From Candidatus Magasanikiibacteriota bacterium (GTDB lineage: Bacteria; Patescibacteriota; Patescibacteriia; Magasanikbacterales; GWA2-37-8): a stretch of 64,000 bases of DNA. The notes beneath the pieces were generated by a model. The model made no database searches. It was not told the DNA's origin and saw only the letters and a program-made list of their open reading frames with translations. Below are positions 3,596 through 58,381 of this stretch, one piece after another. The number at the start of each line of letters is the position of its first letter. Within the stretch, counting starts at the first letter, position 1. The stretch spans positions 9,428-73,427 of the forward strand of contig JAUSEN010000016.1 in assembly GCA_030650025.1 (NCBI GenBank). Reading direction: 5' to 3'. The translations under genes were made by a program, and so were the position numbers.

Positions 3596-4510
3596 ATGAC
3601 CAAGACCTGGTTTGAGGGATTCAGCAAGGCGGCCATCTTGGCCGCGACCCTGCTCGTGGGGTTCACGAGCGCGGGGTGCGAGGAGAGGAAGGCTTCTCTC
3701 CTCATCACCATGACCTTCGATCCGTCGGTCTCCGAGGAGACGAGGGTCGAGGTCCGGCAGGTTGGAACGGTTCTCCGCCTCGCCGTGTCCGGCGTCGAGG
3801 AGTTGGCCGGCGATGGCAAGCTCGAGAGCCAGTCGCTCGACACGGACAAGCAGACCCTCCGGTATCGCCCGCTCGTCCAGAGCGGTCGTCTCAACTTCCA
3901 TATGGTGTTTTACAGTGGAAGGGATGTCGCGGTCCCGCTGATCTTCGGGCGGGGAGCGGGCGACATCCAGGCCGGCATCGAAGTGCCGGTCGCGGTCGTC
4001 CTCTTCCCCTGTGCAGGGGATCAAACAAACTGCCCGGGGAAGATTCCGGACAAGAAGTGCACTCGTGACGACGAGTGCAACCCGGGCTTCTCCTGCGATG
4101 TGCCGAGCGGTCGGTGCCTGCAGAAGCAGGACCAGCCGGACGCGGCCGCGCCCGTCGACATGGCCACGCCGCCGGATCTCACCCCGATCCCGGATCTCCA
4201 GATCGAGATCGAGAAGGTCTTCCGGGTGATCAAGGCCGGATCCGCAGTATGTTGCGAGATCCGCGATGTCCGGGGCAATTGGCTCGAGGACATCAAGATC
4301 GCGGACGGAACCGAGATCAAAAACCCTAAGGCGAAGTACTGTTTTCCCTTCGCCAAGGGGCTCGACATCACCGGCCGGTGCAACTTGCCGGAGGCGGTCA
4401 TCGCCCTCGGCCAGGGGCGTGACGGGTGCGTCAAGAAGGGAGGTCGCATCGACACCCCCAGCTTCAACTGGACGGAGGGGGGGATCGCGGACGACTGCAG
4501 TCAGAAGTAG
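3596..4510 (+). CDS. Cys-rich lipoprotein, hypothetical, encoded in a high-GC island
   Basis: Lipobox LVGFTSAGC after a signal peptide; strong SD (caggaggaag) 6 nt upstream. GC of about 65% and GC3-rich codons, unlike the flanking genes. Confidence 0.55.
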   Translation: MTKTWFEGFSKAAILAATLLVGFTSAGCEERKASLLITMTFDPSVSEETRVEVRQVGTVLRLAVSGVEELAGDGKLESQSLDTDKQTLRYRPLVQSGRLNFHMVFYSGRDVAVPLIFGRGAGDIQAGIEVPVAVVLFPCAGDQTNCPGKIPDKKCTRDDECNPGFSCDVPSGRCLQKQDQPDAAAPVDMATPPDLTPIPDLQIEIEKVFRVIKAGSAVCCEIRDVRGNWLEDIKIADGTEIKNPKAKYCFPFAKGLDITGRCNLPEAVIALGQGRDGCVKKGGRIDTPSFNWTEGGIADDCSQK

Positions 4511-9275: not shown

Positions 9276-9343
9276 CAGCCGCGCTTCAAAGGTCGTTCGC
9301 GACATCGCGAGAGACACTGCGCGGCATGATTTTGTCAAATCAT

Positions 9344-9940
9344 ATGAAATCGAATCAGAGTGTCAGAGGATTTACTTTAATTGAGGTCATGGTGGCCGTG
9401 GCGATATCGGCTTTGTTTTTTAGCGCGGTGGCGGAGATTTTTTTGACAAGCTTTAAAACCGCCGGGCTGGTGAGCGATGAGCTCGAAGGCCAGAGTGGCG
9501 CGCGGCGCGCGGTGAATGATTTTGTGAGCCAATTTAGGCTGGCTTCATACTCGAGCGCGGGTGACTACCCCCTGAAGACAGCCAATATTAATGAAATTGT
9601 TTTTTACGCCAATATTGATAAAGATAACTTAATTGAAAAAGTGCGTTATTATTTAACGGACACTACTTTATACCGAGGGGTAACTAAACCGATTGGCAAT
9701 CCCTTGTCGTATGGGTCAGCGAGTGAAACAGCGGAGACATTGCTCGAGGGGGTGCGGCTGAATGGGAACCCTTTATTTACTTATTACCCGGCGGGTATTG
9801 CCGAGGCGCTAGTCCAGCCAGTTGATATCACGACCGTGCGCTTGGCGGGCATTTATTTGCGCGTGGATAAGAAGCCAACGGCGTCGCCGACAGCTTGGAG
9901 CGTGGCGGCCCGGGCGCAGATGCGGAATCTTAAAAATTAA
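9344..9940 (+). CDS. type IV prepilin/pseudopilin (start moved to ATG 9344: MKSNQSVRG|FTLIEV)
   Basis: A classical prepilin leader appears only if the start is taken at the CATATG ATG (9344). The track's upstream ATG at 9326 lies inside the conserved leader palindrome. Confidence 0.75.
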   Translation: MKSNQSVRGFTLIEVMVAVAISALFFSAVAEIFLTSFKTAGLVSDELEGQSGARRAVNDFVSQFRLASYSSAGDYPLKTANINEIVFYANIDKDNLIEKVRYYLTDTTLYRGVTKPIGNPLSYGSASETAETLLEGVRLNGNPLFTYYPAGIAEALVQPVDITTVRLAGIYLRVDKKPTASPTAWSVAARAQMRNLKN

Positions 9941-12508: not shown

Positions 12509-12703
12509 AAGTTAGCGGAAATTTAGTTAAATACAAAGATATTATACCGAAGTATAAAAAGTTTGTCAAGTTTTTGTACTTTGGTAGAAAATGTTGATTC
12601 CATAATTCAGGTATAAAAATTGGTTGCTGACATTCCGGAATTTTGTTATACTAGTCTAAGAGGAACGGTATTTAAGTTTCGCCAATTTTTAAAAAAATGA
12701 GGT

Positions 12704-12742
12704 GGCTCCGCGCGAGCGGAGTGAATTTTTGACAAAATTCAT
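12704..12742 (+). promoter_or_regulatory. leader module: GC hairpin (ctccgc-GCGA-gcggag) + palindrome TGAATTTT-tgac-AAAATTCA abutting the galU start codon
   Basis: Seen in sequence; same architecture at five other start codons (findings). Confidence 0.6.
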
Positions 12743-20962: not shown

Positions 20963-21052
20963 CGATTGCGCCGCGCTTCAAAGGACCCGCCCGCCTCGCT
21001 ACGCGAAGCGTTGCGGGCAGGCACTGCGCGGCACGATTTTGTTAAATCGCAT
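20963..21052 (+). promoter_or_regulatory. conserved structured 5' leader (variant B) ending in palindrome CGATTTTgttAAATCG + CATATG
   Basis: Shares gccgcgcttcaaagg...cactgcgcggca(c/t)gattt with leaders at 9278-9343 and 22911-22961; contains a nested GC palindrome homologous to 54606-54645. Confidence 0.55.
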
Positions 21053-21526
21053 ATGAAAAAACTTTTTGCGTATCAACTAGTGGCAGTATTCGTAGCGTTC
21101 CTCGCTTTGTCTTTTGTGGTAATAACCCCGGCGCGGGCGGAGGACACCAGCTCTGATATCCGGAAACAACTCGAGGCGGCGGGTGGCACGCAAGGCGCGA
21201 ATTATGGGGAAGCGGTTGACCCGCGAGTCACCGCGGCTTTGATTATTCGGGCGATGCTCGGCATGACTACGATTATTTTGATTATTTTAAATATTTACGC
21301 GGGAATCACTTGGATGACAGCCGGCGGAAACGAGGAAAAGGTGGACAAAGCCAAAACGACAATTAGAAATTCCACTATCGGACTGATTATTGTTTTGTCC
21401 GCTTACTCGATAACTGTTTTTGCCACTTACATCGCGCGGGGCCAGCAGTTTGGCCTCGGCGGCGGGCCTAACGCTTTATCGCGCGGTTTAGGCAATTTCT
21501 TCCAGTCGCGGCAGGGTCCGAATTAA
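21053..21526 (+). CDS. pilin-module paralog 10 (start moved to CATATG ATG 21053: MKKLFAYQLVAVFVAF...)
   Basis: The track ORF begins at 20822 but its first 77 aa are the translated GC-rich leader. A plausible signal peptide begins at 21053. C-terminal IYAGITWMTAGGNEEKVDKAKTTI module. Confidence 0.6.
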   Translation: MKKLFAYQLVAVFVAFLALSFVVITPARAEDTSSDIRKQLEAAGGTQGANYGEAVDPRVTAALIIRAMLGMTTIILIILNIYAGITWMTAGGNEEKVDKAKTTIRNSTIGLIIVLSAYSITVFATYIARGQQFGLGGGPNALSRGLGNFFQSRQGPN

Positions 21527-22910: not shown

Positions 22911-22961
22911 ATTTGCGCCGCGCTTCAGAGGACGTTGCGCGGCATGATTTCGTCAAATCAT
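22911..22961 (+). promoter_or_regulatory. conserved structured 5' leader (variant C) with palindrome TGATTTcgtcAAATCA + CATATG, preceded by an extended -10 (tggtataat at ~22888)
   Basis: ttgcgccgcgcttcagaggacgttgcgcggcatgatttcgtcaaatcatATG. Confidence 0.55.
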
Positions 22962-30529: not shown

Positions 30530-32310
30530 GGTGCGTACCGCAAAAAGGTCGTTTTTTACGACCGCCACGTCCCCTGCACCAGAACGCTTCGCGTCCGGTT
30601 CAGGGCTTCGCAGTCTAGCTCTGGCTACTAGCGAAGCGCCACTCGGGACCTCTAGAAAATTGCGTAGCTTACACAAAAAACGATGTATATTGCTACAAAA
30701 TTTACTCGAGTTACTCCAAGTGGTTAAAAACCCCACCCATTTTATTGGGCCGCTTGGAAAAGCGGCTTTTATTATTTTGGTCGGCTCAGATCGGTGAGAC
30801 AGAGATTTCTCCCCGCTCTAGGCGGGTCGAAATGACAGTGCAGAGTGGACTGGCTGGTACTTTGACAATTCAGGCAAGCACCATGCACCACCATAAACCA
30901 CAAGGGTTTATGGCAAACAAGGGTGCATGGCTAAATAACCATGAACCACAAGGGTTCATGGCAAGATTAATGCTTATTTTAAACATCAAGGTCTGGTGTT
31001 TAAAATAATAAAGGGTAACTTCATAAACATGAATATTGTCATGAAAAATTATGAAGTCAACTCAACGTAAGCACCATTTGGTGTTTTCGTTGTGTGCAAT
31101 TTCAACAAGAGCATATGGTGGATGCCTAGACACTAAAAGATGAAGAAGGACGTTGCAAGGTGCGATAAGCCTCGGGGAGCTCCTAAGCAAGCTGTGATCC
31201 GGGGATTTCCGAATGGGGAAACCCGTTACAAAGAAATTTGTAACATCGTATACTGAATTCATAGGTGTACGAGGAAGACCTGGCGAAGTGAAACATCTCA
31301 GTAGCCAGAGGAAAATAAATCGAAGAGATTCCCTTAGTAGTGGCGAGCGAAAAGGGATCAGCCTAAACCTTATACATGTTGTTGCCGTAACAGATTGATC
31401 GCAAGGTTAATTATGAGCGGCAGTTTAAAGACGCAGGTCGTTGTGTATATGGTGTAATAAGACAATTACGCGTCCGCCCTGCGGCGGACGGTGAAAATGT
31501 GACTTTCCTAGTAGAACGCTCTGGAACGAGCGGCCGCAGAGGGTAAGAGCCCCGTACGCGAAAGGAGTCTATATAATCATGGTAGTTGTTCTTGAGTAGG
31601 GCGGAACTCGTGAAATTCCGTCTGAATTCGGGCCGACTATGGTCTAAGGCTAAATACTTTTAGTGATCGATAGTGGACTAGTACCACGAGGGAAAGGTGA
31701 AAAGTAGCCCGGTGAGGGCGATGAAATAGTATCTGAAACCATATGTTTACAAAGAGCGGAAGACCGGAGTACCCAGAATTATTCCCCCCTACGGGGGGAA
31801 TAATTCTGGGTCCTGGTCGACCGTGTTCCTATTGAAGAATGAGCCTGCGAGTGTGCTGTATGTCGTTGCTTAAACCCTTCTGGGGTGGAGGCATAGCGAA
31901 AGCGAGTCTTAACGGGCGTATATAATGGCATGCACATAACCCGAAACCGGGTGAGCTATCCATGACCAGGATGAACCCTTCCGAAAGGAAGGGGGAGGTC
32001 CGAACACACGAGCCGTGCAACACTCGGTGATGAGTTGTGGATGGGAGAGAAATTCTAATCGAACTCGGTGATAGCTGGTTCTCCTTGAAATAGTTTTAGG
32101 ACTAGCCTCGCGCGTTCCCTTTGGCGGTAGAGCACTGGATGAGACTCGGGTCCTTCGGGATACCAGTTTCAATCAAACTCCGAATGCCGAAGATTAAAAG
32201 CGCGGGAGTCAGACTGTGGGGGCTAAGCTCCATAGTCAAAAGGGAAACAGCCCTGATCGCCAGCTAAGGTCCCTAAATCCATATTAAGTGTGAAAGGTGG
32301 TGTTAACTCT

Positions 32311-32348
<38 letters not shown>

Positions 32349-33172
32349 TAAAGAAAGCGTAACAGCTCACTGGTCAAGAGTTTTCGCGCCGAAAATGTAC
32401 CGGGGCTAAATATGGTACCGAAGCTGCGAATTGGTAGATCCTCCGGGATTTACCTCTGGTAAAGGAGCGTTGGTAGCTGCGCTGAAGCCATAGCCGCGAG
32501 GCGTGGTGGAGTGCTACCAAGTGAGAATGCAGGCATGAGTAACAATAAGGGAAGTGAGAATCTTCCCCGCCGAAAATCCAAGGTTTCCTGGGCAACGAGA
32601 CTCGACCCAGGGTTAGTCGATCCTAAGGCCAGGCCGAAAGGCGTAACCGATGGAAGAGCAGGTTAATATTCCTGCACTTGGTATAGTTTGTTTGTTAGTG
32701 CGCATAGTGAAGCTGACAGCGTGTTTTGAATATACACGTTTCTTTACCCCGACGTGAAGTCGGGGCAGGGACGAAGATGAAGCCTTCGGGTGGAGTCAAC
32801 TGTCGGGGACGCTGTGCCTAGAAAAGCTAATAAACGTTAAGCTATATCAAACCGTACCGTAAACCGACACAGGTAGGTGAGTCGAGAAGACTAAGGCGTA
32901 CGAGAGAACCCTCTTTTAGGAACTCTGCAATACAGCGGCCGTAACTTAGGGATAAGGCCCGCCCCGATGTAAAAATCGGGGTTACAACAAAAGACGCACT
33001 GCGACTGTTTACCAAAAACACAGCTCCCTGCAAAAGCGCAAGCTGAAGTATAGGGAGTGATGCCTGGCCAGTGTCAGAACGTTAAGGCGAGAGGTTATCC
33101 GGTCATCCGACCGGAGAAGCCTTGAACTGAAGCGCTGATGAACGCCGGCGGTAACTATAACCGTCCTAAGGT

Positions 33173-33408
33173 AGCGGACTTGAGAAATCGAGCACGCTAG
33201 GATTGGGACGGATATAGCAAAAAGTAAACAATCATTAAAGATGAGCAGAGTCATCGAAATATTAACAGCCATTCAAAAAATGCTACCTTGCTTTGCAGTA
33301 ATGCAAAGAATAATCCGGTCATAGCTTATGAGAGACTATACGCTATGCTCCTCCGACGAAACTCGGAGGAAGAAGATTTAGTCCTTCGTCATTAAACAGG
33401 AAACGAAG
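33173..33408 (+). mobile_element. group I-like intron (ORF-less), inserted after the U of GGU|AGCG (E. coli ~L1931, helix 69/70 region)
   Basis: The conserved ccgtcctaaggt.agcgaaattccttgtcgg is interrupted by 236 nt; the 5' exon ends in U and the insert ends in G. Confidence 0.6.
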
Positions 33409-33430
33409 AGCGAAATTCCTTGTCGGGTAA

Positions 33431-33682
33431 ACCAAGAACTTGCCCCCTGGTCGAGTAATTGACCTTGAAGCAATAGCTGTATCGGTGGAACCCATAAAAA
33501 ATCGTGCAGATTAATTATGGGCAATACCGAGGGAAGTCCTCCCAAAATGGAGTGACCCCGTAGAGACTACACGCTGTCTCCCGAGTTATTCGGGATGAAG
33601 ATATAGTCCGATCCTGCCGAGTAATTGGCAGCCCTACGAAAATCAAAAATCTAAAATCATAAATCGAAAATTCGTAGATGGA
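33431..33682 (+). mobile_element. second 23S insertion (~252 nt) within GGGUAA|GUUCCGACC (E. coli ~L1951-1953); intron-like, ORF-less
   Basis: Conserved flanks gggtaa and gttccgacctgcacgaatgg are contiguous in E. coli; boundaries are uncertain by 1-2 nt. Confidence 0.55.
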
Positions 33683-34208
33683 GTTCCGACCTGCACGAAT
33701 GGCATAACGATAGTGCGACTGTCTCAAAGAGGGACTCGGTGAAATTGCAAGGAAGGTGAAGATGCCTTCTACCCGCAACTAGACGAAAAGACCCCGTGAA
33801 GCTTTACTACAGCTTGCTATTGGTATACGTGCACGTATGTTGAGCGTAGGTGGGACCCGCAAGGGGCCAATGAGACACCACCCTTATGTATATGTATGCC
33901 TAATCTCTGCCCGTGAATCCGGGGAGGGAGACAGTGGCTGGCGGGTAGTTTATCTGGGGCGGATGCCTCCTAAAATGTAACGGAGGCGTTTACAAAGGTA
34001 GGCTTAGCGCGGATGGAAATCGCGCTGGACGTGCAAACGCAAAAGCCTGCTTTACTGCAAGGGCTACAACCCGCGCAGTTGCGAAAGCAGAAGTTAGTGA
34101 ACCGACCATCCTATATAGGAAGGTGGAAGATCAACGGATAAAAGCTACTCCGGGGATAACAGGCTGATCGCGCCCAATAGTCCACATAGACGGCGCGGTT
34201 TGGCACCT

Positions 34209-34573
34209 TAAATTATCGGGGTGCATACAAAGTGATTTGTTTCCAAGTTTTTTCGTCTAAAACAATTATGTTAAGATAGAAATAGAGATTTAAATCGGCT
34301 TATAACGGTGAACCCGTCATCCCGCCTAAGGCGGGATCGGCAATACCGTGGGAAGTCGCCCATTAACTGTGGGTTGACCCCGTAACGACTGACCCGAAAG
34401 GGGAGACTCGGTTACAGTTAGTAATCGGGTAATACGCCGACTCTTATATTAATCAAACTGAGATCATGCGACTCACGCCCCGAGCAAGTCCCGAAAGGGA
34501 CAAGTCGAGGGGTCCGCTAACATCCAGTATAAGAAGAAGATATAGTCTGCCCCATACGAAAGTATGGAATCAT
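34209..34573 (+). mobile_element. third 23S insertion (~365 nt) in the peptidyl-transferase-centre strand GGCACC|U(A)CGAUGUCGG (E. coli ~L2500); intron-like, ORF-less
   Basis: tttggcacc ... tacgatgtcggctcatc flanks; no long ORF inside. Confidence 0.55.
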
Positions 34574-34636
34574 GTACGATGTCGGCTCATCGCATCCTGG
34601 GGGTGAAGAAGCTCCCAAGGGTTTGGCTGTTCGCCA

Positions 34637-34688
<52 letters not shown>

Positions 34689-35124
34689 CTATCTGTTGCG
34701 GGCGCAGAATGTTGCAAAGACTCTTCCCTAGTACGAGAGGACCGGGAAGAATAAACCTCTGGTGTGCGAGTTGTTCCGTCAGGAGCATTGCTCGGTAGCT
34801 ACGTTTAGCACGGATAAACGCTGAAAGCATCTAAGCGTGAAGCCGTCTTTAAGATTAACATTCGTTATAGACCCCTTGTAGATTACGAGGTTGATAGGCT
34901 CTACGTGTAAGCACAGTAATGTGTTGAGCGGAGGAGTACTAATCGGTCGAGCGCACAACGAAAGCATTAAGTGGTGCTCACCTCTTCGGTGAGTCTACGA
35001 GTTATGTTTGCCATGTCATTCGACATGGCCTTGCCTGAATTTAGTCATTGTAGTAAACTATTTTGAAAATTCCCCCGCCAAAAGCGGGATCAGCTCGCTA
35101 ACGCGAGCCGAAAAAAGAACTAAT

Positions 35125-35236
35125 GTCTTGGTGGCTTTAAGCGAAGGGGTCACACCCGATCCCATCCCGAACTCGGCAGTTAAGCCCTTCTGCGCTGATG
35201 ATAGCCCAAGTGGCAAAAGTAGGCCGCCGCCAGGAC
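35125..35236 (+). rRNA. 5S rRNA
   Basis: cccgatcccatcccgaactcggcagttaagc matches the 5S loop B/C consensus (cf. E. coli cccacctgaccccatgccgaactcagaagtgaaac); terminal helix gtcttggtggc / gccgccaggac. Confidence 0.8.
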
Positions 35237-38676: not shown

Positions 38677-38735
38677 AAATAAAATGATATTGTATCTGTA
38701 GGGGCGGGGTTACCCCGCCCCTACGTTGTATATTT

Positions 38736-43037: not shown

Positions 43038-43148
43038 TTTGTAGTAAAAAAGGCTAAGTAAAGCCAGAACAGTGGTTTATCCACAGGTAGCTGTCAGAAA
43101 AAAATTGACAGCTATTTTGTTCTATGTTATGCTTAAATTAGCAAAAAT

Positions 43149-43883
43149 ATGGATATTTCTTTTTTTAAGAAATTGGGATTTTCTGACAAAGATGCCATGG
43201 TTTATATGGCACTTTTGGCGCTGGGGCCGTCGTCAGTGCGCAATTTGGCTAAAAAGGTGGAATTAAATCGCGGAACGGTTTATGAAATTTTGAAGAGCCT
43301 TAAAGAGCAGAAGCTGGTAACTTATTACGAAAAAGAAGCTAAACAATTTTTTGTAGCCGAGGATCCTATTAAACTGGAAGAATTGCTAGCTAGGCAGGAA
43401 GGAGAGCTGAATGATGTAAAGTCTAAGCTAAAAGGCGTGGTGTCCGAATTAAAGGCGGTTTATGACAAAGGCGGAGCGCGACCGGTGGCTCGCTATTATG
43501 AAAAAGGGGAAATCAAGAAAATTTTGGAGCATGTATTAGATATTTGCGAGGTGACAGAAGAGACGCAGTACCGGGTGTATTCGGATTCGAATATAACTGA
43601 ATATTTATATGAAGGGTTTCAAAGTTTTAGTGACGCGCGCGTCGCCAAGGGTATCGCGGTAAAGGCGATCGCCAGTGGGAGCGGCGGGGCGCTCCGCGGT
43701 TTAGATGAGCGCAAGTTTTTTACTGTTAAAAGCCAGAAGCCAACGTACATATTAATTTATCCAGGGCACACGGCCTATATTTCGCTCGACTCGGCCAACG
43801 AACTGGTTGGAGTGGTGATTGAGAATGACGGTATTTTTGAAATGCAGAAAAGTATTTTTGATGAGCTTTGGAAGAATTTGTAA
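43149..43883 (+). CDS. TrmB-family transcriptional regulator
   Basis: N-terminal wHTH LGFSDKDAMVYMALLALGPSSVRNLAKKVELNRGTVYEILKSLKEQKLV plus a coiled-coil and sugar-binding-like C-terminal domain. Confidence 0.75.
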   Translation: MDISFFKKLGFSDKDAMVYMALLALGPSSVRNLAKKVELNRGTVYEILKSLKEQKLVTYYEKEAKQFFVAEDPIKLEELLARQEGELNDVKSKLKGVVSELKAVYDKGGARPVARYYEKGEIKKILEHVLDICEVTEETQYRVYSDSNITEYLYEGFQSFSDARVAKGIAVKAIASGSGGALRGLDERKFFTVKSQKPTYILIYPGHTAYISLDSANELVGVVIENDGIFEMQKSIFDELWKNL

Positions 43884-43896
43884 CATAGATTACGCA

Positions 43897-44532
43897 GATT
43901 TTATGTTTATTATAGATTTCGATGATACGTTGTTTGATACACGCCCAAAGTTTATAGAGGCGAGGTTTGCGGCGGTAGCGACGCTTGGAGTAACTCGAGA
44001 ACAATACGATATTGCGCGCAACGGATTAAATAAAAATGGCAATTATACAACTAGGCGGCATGCCTACGAAATCGCGAAATTTGATTTTGATGAAGAAAAA
44101 GTTTGTTTAGCCCTCGATTCGGTTTTGGATTCAGAAAAATTACGCAGTTTTTTATTTGCTGATGCATCATATTTTTTAGAAAGCTTAAAAAAGTTAGAGC
44201 AACCGTTAGTTCTGTTAAGCCTGGGAGACGAGGAATTTCAAGCCTGTAAAGTACAGGGGGCAGGAATAGAGAAATATTTCGATAGAATATTTTATGTAAA
44301 TGATACGAAAAAACACGTAGTGCGAGAATTGCTTAGAGCCATCTCGGACGCAAAAGTATGGTTTGTGAATGACAGAGTAGAACAAACCAAAGAGTTGGCA
44401 GAAATGTTTCCGCGCTTAGTGCCGGTACTAAAACAGTCGGCGCGAGATAGTGAGGAGGATTATAAGTTAAGTGGTATTCCATATTTTAAGACTCTGACTG
44501 AAATTTATGACTATATTAAAGCGCAATCCTAG
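43897..44532 (+). CDS. HAD-superfamily hydrolase
   Basis: Motif I FIIDFDDTLFDT. The start was chosen at the first ATG that does not overlap the upstream gene; the track ORF starts at 43819. Confidence 0.55.
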   Translation, partial: DFMFIIDFDDTLFDTRPKFIEARFAAVATLGVTREQYDIARNGLNKNGNYTTRRHAYEIAKFDFDEEKVCLALDSVLDSEKLRSFLFADASYFLESLKKLEQPLVLLSLGDEEFQACKVQGAGIEKYFDRIFYVNDTKKHVVRELLRAISDAKVWFVNDRVEQTKELAEMFPRLVPVLKQSARDSEEDYKLSGIPYFKTLTEIYDYIKAQS

Positions 44533-45280
44533 TAATGTCGCGACGGTAATATTGGCCGCAGGGGAAGGCAGGCGGATGCAAAGCGCTTTGCCCAAAGTTA
44601 TGCATGAGCTTAGTAGGAAGCCGTTGATTGAATATGTGGTAAAGGCGGCAGAAGATTCTGGCGTGGCCGGGAGTTTAGTAGTAGTAGCGAGCGCAACAGG
44701 GCAGGCAGTGCAGGATTATTTAGGAGAGCGGGTAAGTTATGTGGTGCAGTCGCAGCAGCTTGGTACCGGGCACGCGGTAGCGGCTACGGAAGATTTTTTT
44801 AAAGAGCAATCAGACGAAATAGAAAGTATGGTGGTGCTTTATGGCGACATGCCATTTATCTCGCCCCAGTCGATTAAGCGTTTGACGGGAGAGCATATTG
44901 CTAAGCGCAATGTGCTAACCGTGATGACTGCCACGGTGCCAAATTTTGAGGGTACTAACAGCCAGTTTAAAGATTTTGGTAGGATCGTAAGGAATAGTAG
45001 GGGAGAGATTGAGAAGATTGTTGAGTATAAAGACGCGAGCGTGGCAGAAAAAAATATTGGTGAGGTAAATACTGGATTTTTCTGTTTTGACGCGCCGTGG
45101 CTTTGGTCGCATCTAAAGTTAATTAGGAACTCCAATGACCAGGGCGAATATTATTTGACGGATTTAGTGGGGCTCGCGATTCAAGGCGGGTATCCCATTA
45201 GCACAGTTTTGGTGGAAGTTAGCGAAGCGATTGGGGTTAATACCAAAGAGCAGTTAGAAAGATTGCATGTTATTAATTAA
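44507..45280 (+). CDS. sugar-1-phosphate nucleotidyltransferase (GlmU N-terminal-domain-like, no acetyltransferase domain)
   Basis: VILAAGEGRRMQSALPKVMHEL... nucleotidyltransferase fold; the left-handed beta-helix is absent. Confidence 0.7.
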   Translation: MTILKRNPSNVATVILAAGEGRRMQSALPKVMHELSRKPLIEYVVKAAEDSGVAGSLVVVASATGQAVQDYLGERVSYVVQSQQLGTGHAVAATEDFFKEQSDEIESMVVLYGDMPFISPQSIKRLTGEHIAKRNVLTVMTATVPNFEGTNSQFKDFGRIVRNSRGEIEKIVEYKDASVAEKNIGEVNTGFFCFDAPWLWSHLKLIRNSNDQGEYYLTDLVGLAIQGGYPISTVLVEVSEAIGVNTKEQLERLHVIN

Positions 45281-45287
45281 GTAAATT

Positions 45288-45326
45288 CGCTCCACGCGAG
45301 TGGAGTGATTTTCTGAGGAAAATCAT
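45288..45326 (+). promoter_or_regulatory. leader module: hairpin ctccac-GCGA-gtggag + palindrome TGATTTT-ctgagg-AAAATCA abutting the glmS start codon
   Basis: It begins 8 nt after the upstream stop codon and ends at CATATG. Confidence 0.6.
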
Positions 45327-47168
45327 ATGTGTGGAATTGTTGGGTACATTGGAAAAAAACAGGCGTTACCGATTTTGCTTAATGGCTTGAAGCGTTTGGA
45401 ATACCGAGGGTATGATTCCGCGGGCGTGGCAGTATTAAATGAGGGGTTGTTTCAGACTACGCGATCGGTCGGTAAGATCGATAATTTGGTGGCAAAAATG
45501 CAAGATGAAAAAATAGGTGGGGCGAGCGGAATAAACGGGACGATGGGAATCGCTCACACCCGCTGGGCTACGCATGGCGGTGTTACCGAGGAAAATGCCC
45601 ATCCGCATAAGGATTGCACGGGTAATTTGATGATTGTGCATAATGGTATTATAGAAAATTATCGCGAACTTAAAGAAGATCTTGGTAAAAAACATGAATT
45701 TAAATCGCAGACTGATACGGAAGTGCTGGCGCATTTAATTGAGTCTTTATATAAAGGCGATTTACGGCTGGCAGTGGAAGCCGCTCTGGCTAAGGTGCGC
45801 GGGACATATGGATTGGTAGCTATGCATGCCAGCGAGCCCACAAAAATAGTAGCGGCGCGTTTGGGGAGCCCGCTCGTGGTGGGAGTGGGCGATAAAGAAT
45901 ACTATGTAGCTTCCGACACTTCGCCAATGCTGGCGCACACGCAGCAAGTGATTTTTTTAGATGATGGCGAAATCGCGGAAATTAGCGAACACGGGGTGCA
46001 GATTTATAATTTGGCTGATGAGAGGCTGAATAAACCAAGTGAAAAAATTGATTGGGACGAAACTACGGCCGAGCGGCAAGGGCATGACCACTTTATGCTT
46101 AAAGAAATTTTGGACCAGCCCACGGTTATTAAAGATGCTTTGCGCGGCCGTTTGGTAGAGAGCGATGGCACGGCTCGTCTCGGCGGCCTCAACATGACCG
46201 AGGAAGAAATGCACAAGATTAAGAGGGTGATATTGATCGCGTGTGGGACAGCGAGTTATGCCGCTCTCGTCGGTAAATATGCCTTTGAACGTTTAGCGGG
46301 GTTACCGACTACCGTAGAAATTGCCAGTGAATTTCGCTACAGCGACCCGGTGATAGATAATCACACTTTGGTTTTTGGCATCTCACAGTCTGGGGAAACC
46401 GCTGATACGCTCGCGGCCTTGCGCGAAGCCAAACGCAAGGGCGCGTTTGTGCGTGGTATTGTTAATGTGGTAGGTTCGACAATCGCTCGCGAAACTGATG
46501 GCGGCACCTATATTCACGCGGGGCCAGAATTGGCGGTCGCTTCGACAAAAGCGTTTATGAATATGATAGGCGTTTTGCTGATGTACGCGTTGCAGTTTGG
46601 GCGAGTAAATCGCCTGGCTGTGGCCACGGGCCAGCGTTTAGTTAAAGCCATGCTCCAGATTTCGGGAAAGATGAAGCAGACGCTCGAGTTAAGCGATCAA
46701 ATTAAAATTCTCGCCAAAAAATATTCTGGTTATAAAAATTATTTTTTCTTGGGGCGAGGAGTTAATTACCCGGTAGCTTTGGAAGGGTCTCTGAAACTTA
46801 AAGAATGTTCATATATTCATAGCGAAGCTTACCCGGGAGGGGAAATGAAGCATGGGCCAATCGCGCTTTTGTCGCCGGATTTCCCGGTGATGGCGATTAT
46901 GACCAAAAACCAGCTCTACGATAAAATGCGCAGCAATGTTGAAGAGATTAAGGCGCGTCAGGCGCCGCTGATAATTATAGCGACCGAGGGGGATGATAAG
47001 GCCAAAGAGCTCTCTGAAGATGTAATATATGTTCCTGCCACGATGGAGCTTTTAGAGCCGTTAATTAATACGATCCCGCTCCAGCTGTTTGCTTACCACA
47101 CCGCAGTAATGCTCGGGCGCGATGTTGACCGCCCGCGCAATTTAGCAAAGAGCGTGACTGTTGAGTAA
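45327..47168 (+). CDS. glmS: glutamine--fructose-6-phosphate aminotransferase
   Basis: MCGIVGY N-terminal nucleophile and two SIS domains; the C-terminus ends ...SVTVE. Confidence 0.9.
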   Translation: MCGIVGYIGKKQALPILLNGLKRLEYRGYDSAGVAVLNEGLFQTTRSVGKIDNLVAKMQDEKIGGASGINGTMGIAHTRWATHGGVTEENAHPHKDCTGNLMIVHNGIIENYRELKEDLGKKHEFKSQTDTEVLAHLIESLYKGDLRLAVEAALAKVRGTYGLVAMHASEPTKIVAARLGSPLVVGVGDKEYYVASDTSPMLAHTQQVIFLDDGEIAEISEHGVQIYNLADERLNKPSEKIDWDETTAERQGHDHFMLKEILDQPTVIKDALRGRLVESDGTARLGGLNMTEEEMHKIKRVILIACGTASYAALVGKYAFERLAGLPTTVEIASEFRYSDPVIDNHTLVFGISQSGETADTLAALREAKRKGAFVRGIVNVVGSTIARETDGGTYIHAGPELAVASTKAFMNMIGVLLMYALQFGRVNRLAVATGQRLVKAMLQISGKMKQTLELSDQIKILAKKYSGYKNYFFLGRGVNYPVALEGSLKLKECSYIHSEAYPGGEMKHGPIALLSPDFPVMAIMTKNQLYDKMRSNVEEIKARQAPLIIIATEGDDKAKELSEDVIYVPATMELLEPLINTIPLQLFAYHTAVMLGRDVDRPRNLAKSVTVE

Positions 47169-47194
47169 TTAATTATTATGAGTGAGCTTTTTTT

Positions 47195-47848
47195 ATGAAA
47201 TTTTCGGCAGTAATTTTTGACCTCGACGGCGTTTTGATTGACAGTGAATTGCACTGGTTTCGCGAGGAGATGAAATTTTTGAAACAGTTTAATATCCAGC
47301 TTAAGCCGGCGGACGCGTTTAAACTAAGCGGCAAAAGTTTGTATGAGGTGGCTGGCATTTTAAAAGCAGAGCATGGATTACTCGCGCCGATTGATGATTT
47401 GCTGGGGCAAAAAAAAGCTATGGCTGACAAAATTTACCGCTTTAATGCCAGAAAAATGCGCGGAGTGGATAAGTTACTAAAGGTTTTAGAGAAAAATGAA
47501 TATAAAATAGCGATTGCGTCGGGCTCGGCGTTAAAACGCGTTAAAATGATTGTGGAGAGATTTGGTTGGAAAAAGTATTTTGACAAATTAGTGTCCACGG
47601 AGCAAGTTAACTTGCTGGGGAAACCGGATCCGGCCATATATCGTTACGCGGCTATGAGTTTAAAAGTTAAGCCAGAAAATTGTTTGGTATTTGAAGATTC
47701 TTTAAATGGAGTATATGCGGCTCATGGCGCTGGCATGCAATGTGTGGGAGTGCCAGATGCCAGGTGGAGCTGGGGCGATTTTTCAGAGGCCGATTTGGTA
47801 ATAGATTCGTTAGCCGATAAAAAGTTGTTTAATTTTTTGGGGTTATGA
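47195..47848 (+). CDS. HAD hydrolase (beta-phosphoglucomutase-like)
   Basis: AVIFDLDGVLIDSE motif I. Confidence 0.65.
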   Translation: MKFSAVIFDLDGVLIDSELHWFREEMKFLKQFNIQLKPADAFKLSGKSLYEVAGILKAEHGLLAPIDDLLGQKKAMADKIYRFNARKMRGVDKLLKVLEKNEYKIAIASGSALKRVKMIVERFGWKKYFDKLVSTEQVNLLGKPDPAIYRYAAMSLKVKPENCLVFEDSLNGVYAAHGAGMQCVGVPDARWSWGDFSEADLVIDSLADKKLFNFLGL

Positions 47849-48837
47849 AAAAAAATAAATTAAAAGTCGTGGCGGTGGGGGGAGGAAATGGCAGTGCGAT
47901 TGTGCTTGAGGCCTTAAAAAATTACGCTGATCGTTTGGAAATTTCGGCGGTGATTTCGGTAAGCGACTCGGGCGGCTCGAGCGGAGAATTACGGCGCCAG
48001 TTTAAATTGCCGCCGCCGGGCGATATTTTGCGCGCGGTTTTGGGTTTGTCACCTTATGATTACCGCTTATTAAAAAAGATTTTTTATGGCAATCGTTTTG
48101 AACACTTGAAAAAATTTAAAGTCAAAGGCGCCGTGCGCGGTTTAAAAGGGCATAATTTAGGCAACTTATTTTTGATGATGTTAGCAAATGCCGAAGGGGA
48201 CTACTTAAACGCTATTAGAGCTTTGGAAAAAGCGGTAGCAGCGCAAGGTCATGTTTACCCTGTATCCCTAGAATTAACTGATTTAGGAGTAGAATTAGCA
48301 AACGGCAGAGCGGTTATTGGCGAAGGCAATATTGATCGGCCGAACTATAGTAGAAAATTAAAAATTGAAAAAGCATTTTTAAAGCCACTTGTTAAAGTTT
48401 ATAAACAAGCGGAGCAGGTACTTAAGAGTGCGGATGTAATTATTTTTTGCCCGGGCAGTTTATACTGCAGTGTAATCGCCGCGCTTTTGCCCAGAGGTGT
48501 TAAAGAGGCGATAGCGAGAAATGGGAGAGCGAAGTTAGTCTATATTCCGGGCGATGCTTATGAGATTAATGGCGAGACGGGCCCAGAGAAATTGAGCGAA
48601 TTTGTTAGCCAAATTGAACAGTATTTACCGCGCGCCCTTGATGTAGTAATGTACAATGACTGCGAATTAAGTGGACGCCTAAAAAAACGTTATAAAGAAA
48701 AGAAATGGGCGCAGTTTAAGAAAGATCCTGAGGATATAAAAGGCAAAAAGTTGGTGAGCGGAGATTTTGAGAAAGAAGCAGGTGGCTTGAGCAGTGCCAA
48801 GCTCGCACCTATGCTTAAAAAAATAATTTTTGTATGA
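47845..48837 (+). CDS. CofD/YvcK-family (UPF0052, gluconeogenesis-factor-like) protein
   Basis: VVAVGGGNGSAIVL...VSDSGGSSGELRR signature. Confidence 0.7.
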   Translation: MKKNKLKVVAVGGGNGSAIVLEALKNYADRLEISAVISVSDSGGSSGELRRQFKLPPPGDILRAVLGLSPYDYRLLKKIFYGNRFEHLKKFKVKGAVRGLKGHNLGNLFLMMLANAEGDYLNAIRALEKAVAAQGHVYPVSLELTDLGVELANGRAVIGEGNIDRPNYSRKLKIEKAFLKPLVKVYKQAEQVLKSADVIIFCPGSLYCSVIAALLPRGVKEAIARNGRAKLVYIPGDAYEINGETGPEKLSEFVSQIEQYLPRALDVVMYNDCELSGRLKKRYKEKKWAQFKKDPEDIKGKKLVSGDFEKEAGGLSSAKLAPMLKKIIFV

Positions 48838-49196
48838 ATATTAAGAAAGACATAATAAAAGACAGTTTGATGGTAAAGATAACAGTGACAGAAGAGGGCC
48901 AAGAAGCGGGGCGGTGCTTTGTATATATTTTGCATAATGATTTGCACGCCGAGCCGTTTGCGTATTTAGAGGATGTATTTGTTGCCGAGAAATTTAGAGG
49001 CCAAAAAATTGGGACTAAATTGGTGGAACTGGCTGTGGAAGAGGCGAAAAGCCGGGGGTGTTATAAAATGATTTTTACAACTCGCCATGCTAAGCCCGAA
49101 GTGCAGGAGTGGTATAAAAAATTGGGATTTAAAGATTGGGGAACAGAATTTAGGATGGATTTAAAATCAGACTCGAAAATATTGACGAAAGATTAA
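48834..49196 (+). CDS. GNAT-family N-acetyltransferase
   Basis: VAEKFRGQKIGTKLV acetyl-CoA-binding motif. Confidence 0.6.
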   Translation: MNIKKDIIKDSLMVKITVTEEGQEAGRCFVYILHNDLHAEPFAYLEDVFVAEKFRGQKIGTKLVELAVEEAKSRGCYKMIFTTRHAKPEVQEWYKKLGFKDWGTEFRMDLKSDSKILTKD

Positions 49197-57116: not shown

Positions 57117-57155
57117 CGTCCCGACGTACGTCGGGACATGATTTCGTAAAATCAT
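57117..57155 (+). promoter_or_regulatory. leader module: hairpin gtcccgac-gta-cgtcgggac + palindrome TGATTTcgtaAAATCA abutting the start codon
   Basis: Ends at CATATG 57153-57158. Confidence 0.55.
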
Positions 57156-58304: not shown

Positions 58305-58381
58305 AAATTGCTTAATCAGAGTCTTCAAGCGGGCGCCCCGCGCCACAGGCACGGGGCGCCCGTTCTGTAAATTGGCGTAAT

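Follow-up and report, generated by a model that had tools for sequence, protein, structure and literature searches.

The 46 nucleotides (nt) in front of glmS in a 64,000-nt stretch of the genome of a Candidatus Magasanikiibacteriota bacterium (contig JAUSEN010000016.1; the whole stretch is called here the window) are almost entirely taken up by a hairpin and a palindrome, which raises the question of what these structures do for the gene. An earlier, sequence-only reading of the locus had proposed that the hairpin terminates transcription, so that glmS expression would require read-through, and that a compact RNA element stands here in place of the glmS ribozyme. The reading that we favour, tentatively and with a confidence a little short of even, is that the hairpin and the palindrome are a diverged, simplified copy of a cis-acting mRNA leader module, distributed throughout the Parcubacteria, which gives glmS its own translation initiation region.

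The upstream gene ends with a TAA stop codon (positions 45278-45280), the 46-nt gap follows with the sequence originally given, and the ATG of glmS stands at 45327. Hairpin 1 (45287-45308, + strand) starts 6 nt 3' of the stop codon and is formed by UCGCUCCAC and GUGGAGUGA around the GNRA-type tetraloop GCGA (45296-45299); its 9 base pairs (bp) include one G-U and five G-C pairs, and its energy of -15.4 kcal/mol (z = -5.99) was reached by none of 200 shuffled sequences. Hairpin 2 (45305-45326, + strand) reads (G)UGAUUUU / CUGAGG / AAAAUCA(U) and ends one base 5' of the ATG. It corresponds to the palindrome TGATTTT-N6-AAAATCA, a perfect 7-bp inverted repeat, and has an energy of -8.0 kcal/mol (z = -4.42; again 0 of 200 shuffles as stable). 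In the minimum-energy fold of the 49 nt from 45281 to 45329 both hairpins are formed and abut each other, with -17.1 kcal/mol (z = -4.17; 0 of 200 shuffles). The two hairpins have the UGA at 45306-45308 in common, and hence compete for it. As read from the sequence, the loop of hairpin 2 exposes a Shine-Dalgarno-like GAGG (45315-45318, + strand), 8 nt 5' of the ATG, at the distance usual for Shine-Dalgarno sequences. The description of a hairpin and a palindrome squeezed between the stop of the GlmU-like gene and the glmS start was therefore exact, and both folds are far more stable than chance would give. The further claim that the gap leaves no room for an independent promoter also held, as no recognisable promoter fits there. 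The best promoter match in the 40-50 kb region, TTGACA-17-TATGCT with a TG (43105-43133, + strand), probably drives an operon made of genes for a TrmB-like regulator, a HAD hydrolase, the N-terminal part of GlmU, GlmS, a second HAD protein resembling beta-phosphoglucomutase (beta-PGM), a YvcK/CofD-like protein and a GNAT protein. Within this tightly packed operon glmS is the fourth gene, and its gap is the longest, the remaining junctions overlapping or measuring at most 26 nt (26 nt before the gene at 47195).

The same architecture was found at other genes of this genome. A search with hairpin 1 returned a second copy at 12705-12721, differing by one compensatory pair (A-U to G-C), and a search with the core of hairpin 2 returned four further copies that abut the ATGs at 9344, 21053, 22962 and 57156. 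In total the window holds six elements, all on the gene strand and all folding as two abutting hairpins followed by AUG, and five of the six ATGs are starts annotated by NCBI. A seventh copy lies in the same genome about 3 kb before the start of the window (locus L160, 6720-6779) and precedes a ComM/Mg-chelatase-like gene; its hairpin 1, of 14 bp, is followed by UGAAUUUUCUU-GCGA-AAGAAAAUUCA-U-AUG, and the element folds with -31.0 kcal/mol (z -6.35). The build common to all seven consists of a GC hairpin and, immediately next to it, YGA(A)UUU-loop-AAA(U)UCR, with the AUG 0-3 nt further on. The glmS copy conforms to it, with UGAUUUU/AAAAUCA, a U, the AUG and a linker of 0 nt between the hairpins.

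The five sister copies of the window differ mostly in hairpin 1. The scores given below in bits are those of R1, a covariance model based on 51 copies from metagenomes and one from the window, with E-values that are rough owing to a shortened calibration. The copy before galU (12705-12742, + strand; ATG 12743) has the simple hairpin and reads GCUCCGC-GCGA-GCGGAG-UGAAUUUU-UGAC-AAAAUUCA-U-AUG; it folds with -16.2 kcal/mol (z -3.28), scores 14.4 bits and follows TGTTATACT. The copy before a type IV pilin-like gene (9278-9343, + strand; NCBI start 9344) is canonical with an extra hairpin inside hairpin 1 (49.2 bits, E 4.6e-9; -32.1 kcal/mol, z -4.67). The one before the gene for a 157-amino-acid (aa) protein (20970-21052, + strand; NCBI start 21053) is canonical; its hairpin 1 holds a long insert, and its hairpin 2 is compensated, CGAUUU/AAAUCG (20.5 bits; -43.7 kcal/mol, z -3.68). 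The canonical copy before the gene for a 120-aa protein (22917-22961, + strand; ATG 22962) stands 21 nt 3' of TGGTATAAT, and its 75.8 bits have to be read with the fact that it is one of the 52 sequences from which R1 was built. Finally, the copy before the gene for an ABC substrate-binding protein (57118-57155, + strand; NCBI start 57156) combines a simple 8-bp hairpin 1 (GUCCCGAC-GUAC-GUCGGGAC) with a canonical hairpin 2 (50.0 bits, E 3.1e-9; -19.0 kcal/mol, z -3.86). The galU and 22962 copies lie in divergent intergenic regions, 3' of good extended -10 boxes, and are therefore placed within 5' untranslated regions (UTRs); the others follow a co-directional gene. It should be noted that the galU leader (12696-12731) also holds an 11-codon upstream open reading frame (ORF; MRWLRASGVNF-stop), which crosses hairpin 1 and ends with the UGA in the loop of hairpin 2, 10 nt 5' of the galU ATG. 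Translation of this leader ORF could be coupled to opening of the element.

The module extends well beyond this genome, whose nearest species-level relatives are Magasanikbacteria (Parcubacteria, Candidate Phyla Radiation (CPR)). A metagenome collection was searched with the pattern CATGATTTNNNNAAATCATATG, which yielded at least 120 loci; 613 kb of these loci were scanned, and about 1.3 Mb of related DNA was examined overall. The figures that follow apply to the matches listed by that search. About 60% of them have the same hairpin immediately 5' and a real ORF 3', and they define the consensus GYCGCGC-UUYAAWGGACR(A)UU-GCGCGRC-AUGAUUU-YGYW-AAAUCAU-AUG, with a canonical fold of 58 nt. In hairpin 1, which is unconstrained by the search pattern, 97% of the alignment cells are paired, and double-sided changes occur in five of the seven pairs. 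The 13-14-nt loop of the canonical hairpin 1 has conserved nucleotides (AA, GAC and UU), and the purine that follows GAC covaries with the first base of the hairpin 2 loop (G:C 41-43, A:U 9-12, others 2). As this pair ranks second among all column pairs by mutual information, in a ranking that was unbiased, the two loops appear to touch. The arms of hairpin 2 also change together, as CGAUUU/AAAUCG (at 21053 and in locus L016), as UAAUUU/AAAUUA (L004) or by lengthening of both arms (galU, L160); the search pattern fixes hairpin 2, so that support for this helix comes from about a dozen independent copies. Because the changes in the hairpins are compensatory, selection acts at the RNA level, and the element is selected as a folded single strand on the gene strand.

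These features bear on the idea that a dimeric factor, such as the TrmB-like regulator of the operon, uses the palindrome TGATTTT-N6-AAAATCA as its operator on the DNA. The perfect 7-bp inverted repeat would suit such a factor, a helix-turn-helix regulator gene lies 2 kb upstream, and TrmB-like genes adjoin galU in relatives. Against this, the arms covary within a single genome, their length ranges from 6 to 11 bp and the spacer from 4 to 6 nt, where an operator would have fixed half-sites and spacing. Moreover, the element is always found on the gene strand, right at the ATG, the hairpin 1 that adjoins the repeat shows covariation of the RNA type, and dozens of unrelated genes are preceded by the element. 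We therefore regard a DNA operator as very improbable.

R1 detects at least 65 sites of 40 bits or more in the 613 kb of metagenome loci, and a filter-free search of the window returns all six copies, the one at glmS with 20.8 bits (E = 0.0086), its hairpin 2 matching the corresponding part of the model. A weak R1 match at 30738-30776 (- strand) was rejected as a family member, since it corresponds to an ordinary intrinsic terminator on the + strand, at about 30752-30785. Viral contigs (IMG/VR) served as a negative control; they gave 10 matches to the pattern, all without hairpin 1 and without an ORF, on which grounds a phage origin was rejected, and the hairpin 1 pattern of the simple variant had no match in IMG/VR. 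From the named cluster members, element-bearing genes belong to Kaiser-, Nomura-, Zambryski- and Magasanikbacteria. The density of the element is about one copy per 10-15 kb. About one third of the copies begin at most 12 nt after an upstream stop codon, the flanks are A/U-rich, and a -10 box, where present, often lies about 21-36 nt 5' of hairpin 1. No relevant Rfam 15 match was obtained for the window, the glmS gap or a canonical copy at gathering and E-value thresholds, and no description of the motif was found in the full-text literature, literal-sequence search included, a result that is provisional given the incomplete coverage. The family is thus, provisionally, apparently undescribed.

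Two further forms of the module were seen among the matches listed. In about 15% of the copies a second complete module is nested inside hairpin 1, an inner hairpin 1' and hairpin 2' (ACGAUUC-YNNN-GAAUCG) being inserted just 5' of the 3' strand of the outer hairpin 1 (L028, L035, L040, L042, L046, L068, L071, L079, L104, L115 and L133). In a variant (L022 341-378, L045, L061, L066 and L109), AAAAUYAUG-CCYAG replaces hairpin 1 and can pair with the 5' strand of hairpin 2 (CAUGAUUUU), giving two mutually exclusive hairpins with a switch-like look.

What do the genes behind the element have in common? Thirty sampled downstream products include S9, S12, S20, L25, EF-Tu, NusA, RpoC, CarB, transketolase, DnaG, ScpB, NrdR, RNase H, a response regulator and several type IV secretion system pilins. 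The set is rich in translation and transcription genes (tuf, rpsL, rpsI, rpoC and nusA among them) and otherwise functionally unrelated. The proposal of a glmS-specific element does not survive this comparison, for the same architecture stands 5' of at least six other unrelated genes here and of dozens of housekeeping genes across the Parcubacteria. What stood of the idea that a compact, non-ribozyme RNA element occupies the glmS leader is the structure itself and the absence of a glmS ribozyme; what fell is its role as a replacement specific to glmS. The glmS ribozyme (RF00234) was discarded after it gave no match at E<=10 in 44800-45800 and none at E<=1 in the whole window. A metabolite-specific riboswitch was likewise rejected, since the downstream genes span ribosomal proteins, RNA polymerase, pilins, carB, dnaG, nrdR, glmS, galU and a comM-like gene. 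A sugar-nucleotide regulon, which the GNRA-capped hairpin 1 shared by glmS and galU might suggest, was abandoned in view of the third simple-hairpin copy, before the ComM/Mg-chelatase-like gene.

Other identities for parts of the element were considered and set aside. An in-frame AUG in hairpin 2 does not open a conserved N-terminal peptide or upstream ORF, as it is replaced by GCG, ACG or AUA with compensation in the other arm. A codon-anticodon mimic (CAU before AUG) is contradicted by L016, which has CGU. A sigma-54 or leaderless promoter inside hairpin 2 was rejected because the hexamers misfit in sequence and in spacing, and a Shine-Dalgarno sequence in the hairpin 1 loop (AAGGA) because its GG is unconserved, the variants being UGAC, CGAC and AGAC.

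On the explanation first offered for the site, hairpin 1 with the following UGAUUUU stops transcription behind the GlmU-like gene as an intrinsic terminator, and glmS needs read-through. The structure might also be an attenuator, in which read-through depends on how closely the ribosome that completes the upstream gene trails the polymerase, as in the well-established pyrE attenuator of E. coli. With 9 bp and a loop of 4 nt, hairpin 1 is the kind of stem expected of intrinsic terminators (GC-rich, with a 3-8-nt loop); this -15.4 kcal/mol hairpin runs into UUUU, and hairpin 1 together with TTTTCTGAGG is the top match of a terminator scan of 40-50 kb. With only 6 nt between the stop codon and hairpin 1, the 5' strand of the hairpin would be covered by a ribosome that terminates there, a pyrE-like arrangement; the 11-codon upstream ORF crosses the galU copy, and the 14-bp hairpin of the L160 copy is likewise followed by UGAAUUUUCUU. 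However, the same scan found 12 terminator-like sites where 11.3 were expected from shuffles, so the region matches its shuffled counts and the pattern carries little weight at glmS. The U-tract is short as well. It reads UUUUCU, with 4 consecutive U and 5 U in 8 nt, whereas intrinsic terminators normally have about 6-8 such residues directly after the stem and the clear terminators of this genome carry long U-runs (about 30752-30785, and about 6673-6705 in L160), the first of these, just 5' of the 23S gene, being of the textbook intrinsic type (GCCGCUUGGAAAAGCGGC then UUUUAUUAUUUU). In addition, the same architecture occurs between promoters and essential genes, canonical copies have a hairpin 1 loop of 13-14 nt followed by AUGAUUU, and a terminator leaves unexplained why the conserved 3' arm of hairpin 2 is flush with the ATG. 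With the short U-run, the sister copies in 5' UTRs, the large canonical loops and the lack of enrichment, a terminator requiring read-through is the weaker reading, and we consider it distinctly unlikely; partial termination at the glmS copy is possible and is not favoured.

The leaders of glmS and galU were then compared with those of relatives. None of 20 species-level relatives from the Genome Taxonomy Database (GTDB) has the two-hairpin element in the glmS gap, and R1 finds only two canonical copies in 341 kb of these 20 relatives, one of them directly 3' of glmS in L016. Among the other loci compared, the glmS of L154 (78% identity) has a canonical element that fills its 68-nt gap (36.2 bits, E 1.4e-6) in the same gene order as in the window (GAPDH, TrmB, HAD, nucleoside triphosphate (NTP) transferase, glmS, HAD). 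The glmS genes of L152 (89% identity to the window gene; a 24-nt A/T spacer) and L153 (78%; a 6-nt gap) lack the element. At galU, L155 (87% identity) lacks it too and keeps the TTATACT box, 9 nt from the ATG; the galU leader thus measures about 85 nt, element included, in the window against 9 nt in L155. As presence differs among close relatives at both genes, the module must be gained and lost over short time scales, and it can take up a place that in relatives belongs to a leaderless-type or minimal start region.

Other features of these leaders were observed. Six of the loci L001-L020 that lack the element keep (A)AAUCAU directly 5' of the glmS ATG, and ATCATATG stands at no other gene start in those loci; this short sequence may be left over from an ancestral element, or may itself act as a signal. 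In A/T-rich Magasanikbacteria another shared and conserved leader precedes glmS, CAGAGUCUACAGAUCC-[variable hairpin]-UUCAGGAUAAUAAAAAUCAU-AUG (L007 9880-10003, L008 9880-10003, L014 4794-4917 and L020 9850-10003), in which an AUCC/GGAU stem surrounds the variable hairpin and several pairs are compensated. It may be another variant of the leader module.

Taken together, these results support a function that is shared by many genes. Elements lie flush with annotated start codons, in 5' UTRs as well as in intercistronic gaps, and the module is, as far as its sequence and placement tell, a general gene-expression signal, not a switch for glmS or a plain terminator. We infer that it influences how translation is initiated and possibly how stable the mRNA is. 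In the mechanism that we propose, the module would act at the RNA level through a stable GC hairpin 1 set against a weak A/U hairpin 2 that meets the start codon at its 3' end. Within the polycistronic TrmB-HAD-GlmU'-glmS transcript, glmS would thereby obtain a self-contained translation initiation region. Hairpin 1 would clamp off the upstream cistron and so prevent mispairing with the glmS start region, and may also shield the downstream RNA from 5'-end decay, while hairpin 2 would display GAGG in its loop and hold the AUG at the base of its stem. Translation of glmS would then start without relying on the overlapping stop/start coupling used at the other junctions of the operon.

Several observations weigh against this account. 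The glmS copy has neither the conserved hairpin 1 loop (UUYAAWGGACR) nor the kissing pair, its loops GCGA and CUGAGG not being complementary, as holds for the galU and L160 copies too, and its R1 score of 20.8 bits is below that of chance matches with a perfect hairpin 2 and no hairpin 1 (25-35 bits). As chance matches outscore it, its membership in the family rests on architecture more than on score. The simple GNRA-capped hairpin 1 was found in this genome only, among the 1.3 Mb of related DNA, and the closest relatives of glmS (L152, 89%) and galU (L155, 87%) are without the element. In these genomes a Shine-Dalgarno sequence and the element are both missing from many leadered genes, so that the element is not required for initiation. 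Finally, structure over positions -1 to -20 normally inhibits initiation.

That stable hairpins beside ribosome binding sites are known to act as 5' stabilisers, as in the E. coli ompA leader and B. subtilis aprE, speaks for a reading of the module as an RNA processing or stability element. An endonuclease would cut the A/U-rich RNA beside the hairpins, hairpin 1 would then cap either the downstream mRNA at its 5' end or the upstream one at its 3' end, and the cistrons of one operon would differ in half-life. The A/U-rich flanks, and the third of the copies that start within 12 nt of an upstream stop codon, agree with this. A stabiliser, however, needs no conserved loop sequence, no kissing pair and no exact contact with the AUG, and we hold this reading to be more doubtful still than a terminator.

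The canonical copies raise an alternative of another kind. Because of their conserved loops, kissing pair and nested duplicates, specific recognition of these copies by a protein, a ligand or the ribosome has to be taken as a serious alternative. In its full form this alternative makes the module a sensor, that is, a global translational operator or a riboswitch, in which a trans-acting factor (a protein, a small molecule or the ribosome) reads the loop of hairpin 1 together with its contact to the other loop, and in so doing opens hairpin 2 or makes it more stable; it would switch the translation of many growth-related genes, the glmS copy being decayed or factor-independent. The conserved loop nucleotides (AA, GAC, UU) with one covarying tertiary pair point that way, as do the second modules nested in about 15% of the matches listed, which resemble tandem aptamers or cooperative protein sites, the variant with an alternative upstream partner for the 5' strand of hairpin 2, and the wealth of translation and transcription genes downstream. 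On the other hand, the downstream genes are too varied for a metabolite tied to one pathway, and the copies at glmS, galU, 57156 and in L160 keep the architecture while their hairpin 1 loop lacks the conserved sequence. A sensor seems to us unlikely as an explanation of the glmS leader.

We also note a bolder form of the module hypothesis, to which we give equally little credence. The canonical module might be a structural signal to which the translation machinery of Parcubacteria responds, either as a ribosome-loading element that is independent of the Shine-Dalgarno sequence, or else as a genome-wide translational switch over about 5-10% of genes, the glmS copy being in either case a simplified version that acquired a Shine-Dalgarno sequence in its loop. 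As a loading element it would be a bacterial analogue of an internal ribosome entry structure, making an internal AUG look like a leaderless 5' end. As a switch it would tie ribosome and RNA polymerase genes to one signal in host-dependent bacteria.

Returning to the favoured leader module, comparison with known systems suggests, by analogy, that it works most like the translational operator structures found at start codons. The operator of the replicase gene bound by the MS2/R17 coat protein, E. coli thrS and the rpsO pseudoknot are, like the module, small cis-acting RNA folds at the start codon that govern access of the 30S subunit. Each of these concerns one gene and one known protein, whereas the module precedes about one in ten genes of a genome, in several candidate phyla, and consists of two abutting hairpins with a loop-loop pair. 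The guanidine-II riboswitch (mini-ykkC, RF01068) is also made of two small hairpins beside the ribosome binding site, with loops that kiss through a C-G/G-C dinucleotide; it differs in having ACGR tetraloops on both hairpins and in preceding guanidine exporters, whereas the module has GCGA and CUGAGG loops at glmS, or 13-14-nt and YGYW loops in canonical copies, stands before unrelated genes and has no Rfam match. Intrinsic terminators and ribosome-coupled attenuators (E. coli pyrE and pyrBI) share the GC hairpin followed by U and, at glmS, the stop codon just before the hairpin; the module departs from them by its short U-run, by a second hairpin tied to the AUG, by its presence in the 5' UTRs of essential genes and by its large canonical loop. 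In split ribosome binding sites and 5' stabilisers (phage T4 genes 38 and 25, the ompA 5' UTR), hairpins of the initiation region set geometry or protect the mRNA, with no sensing involved; these are single-gene cases and, unlike the module, have no family-wide sequence conservation or tertiary pair. The glmS ribozyme (RF00234) likewise occupies the glmS leader, with about 170 nt against about 40 nt here; the two have no sequence or structure match, and the module is not specific to glmS.

A start-codon RNA module of this kind is of interest for the group as a whole. The CPR, or Patescibacteria, make up a large share of bacterial diversity, and to our knowledge almost nothing is known of how they control gene expression. 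In the window most genes are without a Shine-Dalgarno motif, clear ones being found at 3596, 17854, 23839 and 36693. TATAAT/TATACT-like boxes lie just 5-9 nt 5' of several ATGs (482, 7479, 38008 on the - strand, 52485 and others), and boxes so close to start codons suggest leaderless mRNAs. This genome makes rare use of Shine-Dalgarno sequences and seemingly has many leaderless mRNAs. A covarying 58-nt fold at the starts of tuf, rpsL, rpoC, nusA and pilin genes would be one of the chief means by which these organisms set translation or mRNA stability, and it would be a ready-made expression part for the few genetically tractable Patescibacteria. For glmS itself, its leader structure would be a generic module, not a metabolite-sensing stand-in for the glmS ribozyme.

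The genes on both sides of the gap were identified as follows. The upstream gene (44507-45280, + strand) encodes a 257-aa GlmU-like uridylyltransferase that consists of the N-terminal domain only (NCBIfam GlmU models, Pfam NTP_transferase), residues 13-252 of which align to positions 2-231 of the 447-position NCBIfam GlmU profile. The gene downstream (45327-47168, + strand) encodes GlmS of 613 aa, a full-length match to NCBIfam NF001484 with 801 bits, and NCBI annotates the same 613-aa product. This UDP-N-acetylglucosamine operon (43149-49196) is unusual in that its GlmU homologue has the uridylyltransferase domain only and stands together with two HAD/beta-phosphoglucomutase-like genes, a YvcK/CofD-like gene and a GNAT acetyltransferase gene; these companions might replace GlmM and the missing acetyltransferase domain of GlmU. 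At its upstream end, 3' of the GAPDH gene, a 9-bp inverted repeat (TAGCTGTCA-N9-TGACAGCTA) with a T-run (43085-43133) overlaps the -35 box of the promoter-like site 5' of the TrmB-like gene. The repeat may serve in termination, as an operator for the TrmB-like regulator, or in both ways. The relatives in which TrmB-like genes also adjoin galU are L156 and L157.

Elsewhere in the window, GC-rich hairpins without hairpin 2 lie 14-20 nt 5' of two starts, at 38695-38735 (GGGGCGGGG-UUA-CCCCGCCCC, before 38736) and at 58340-58381 (ACGGGCGCCCGU-like, before 58382). No 16S gene was present in the window or in any locus examined. Because the window is without one, its ribosomal RNA (rRNA) genes appear to be unlinked, which is typical for CPR. 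The 5S gene (35127-35235) lies 3' of the 23S gene, and the latter, 3867 nt long within 31093-35235, is interrupted by two group I introns, at 33419-33631 (56 bits) and at 34249-34568 (40 bits, below the gathering score).

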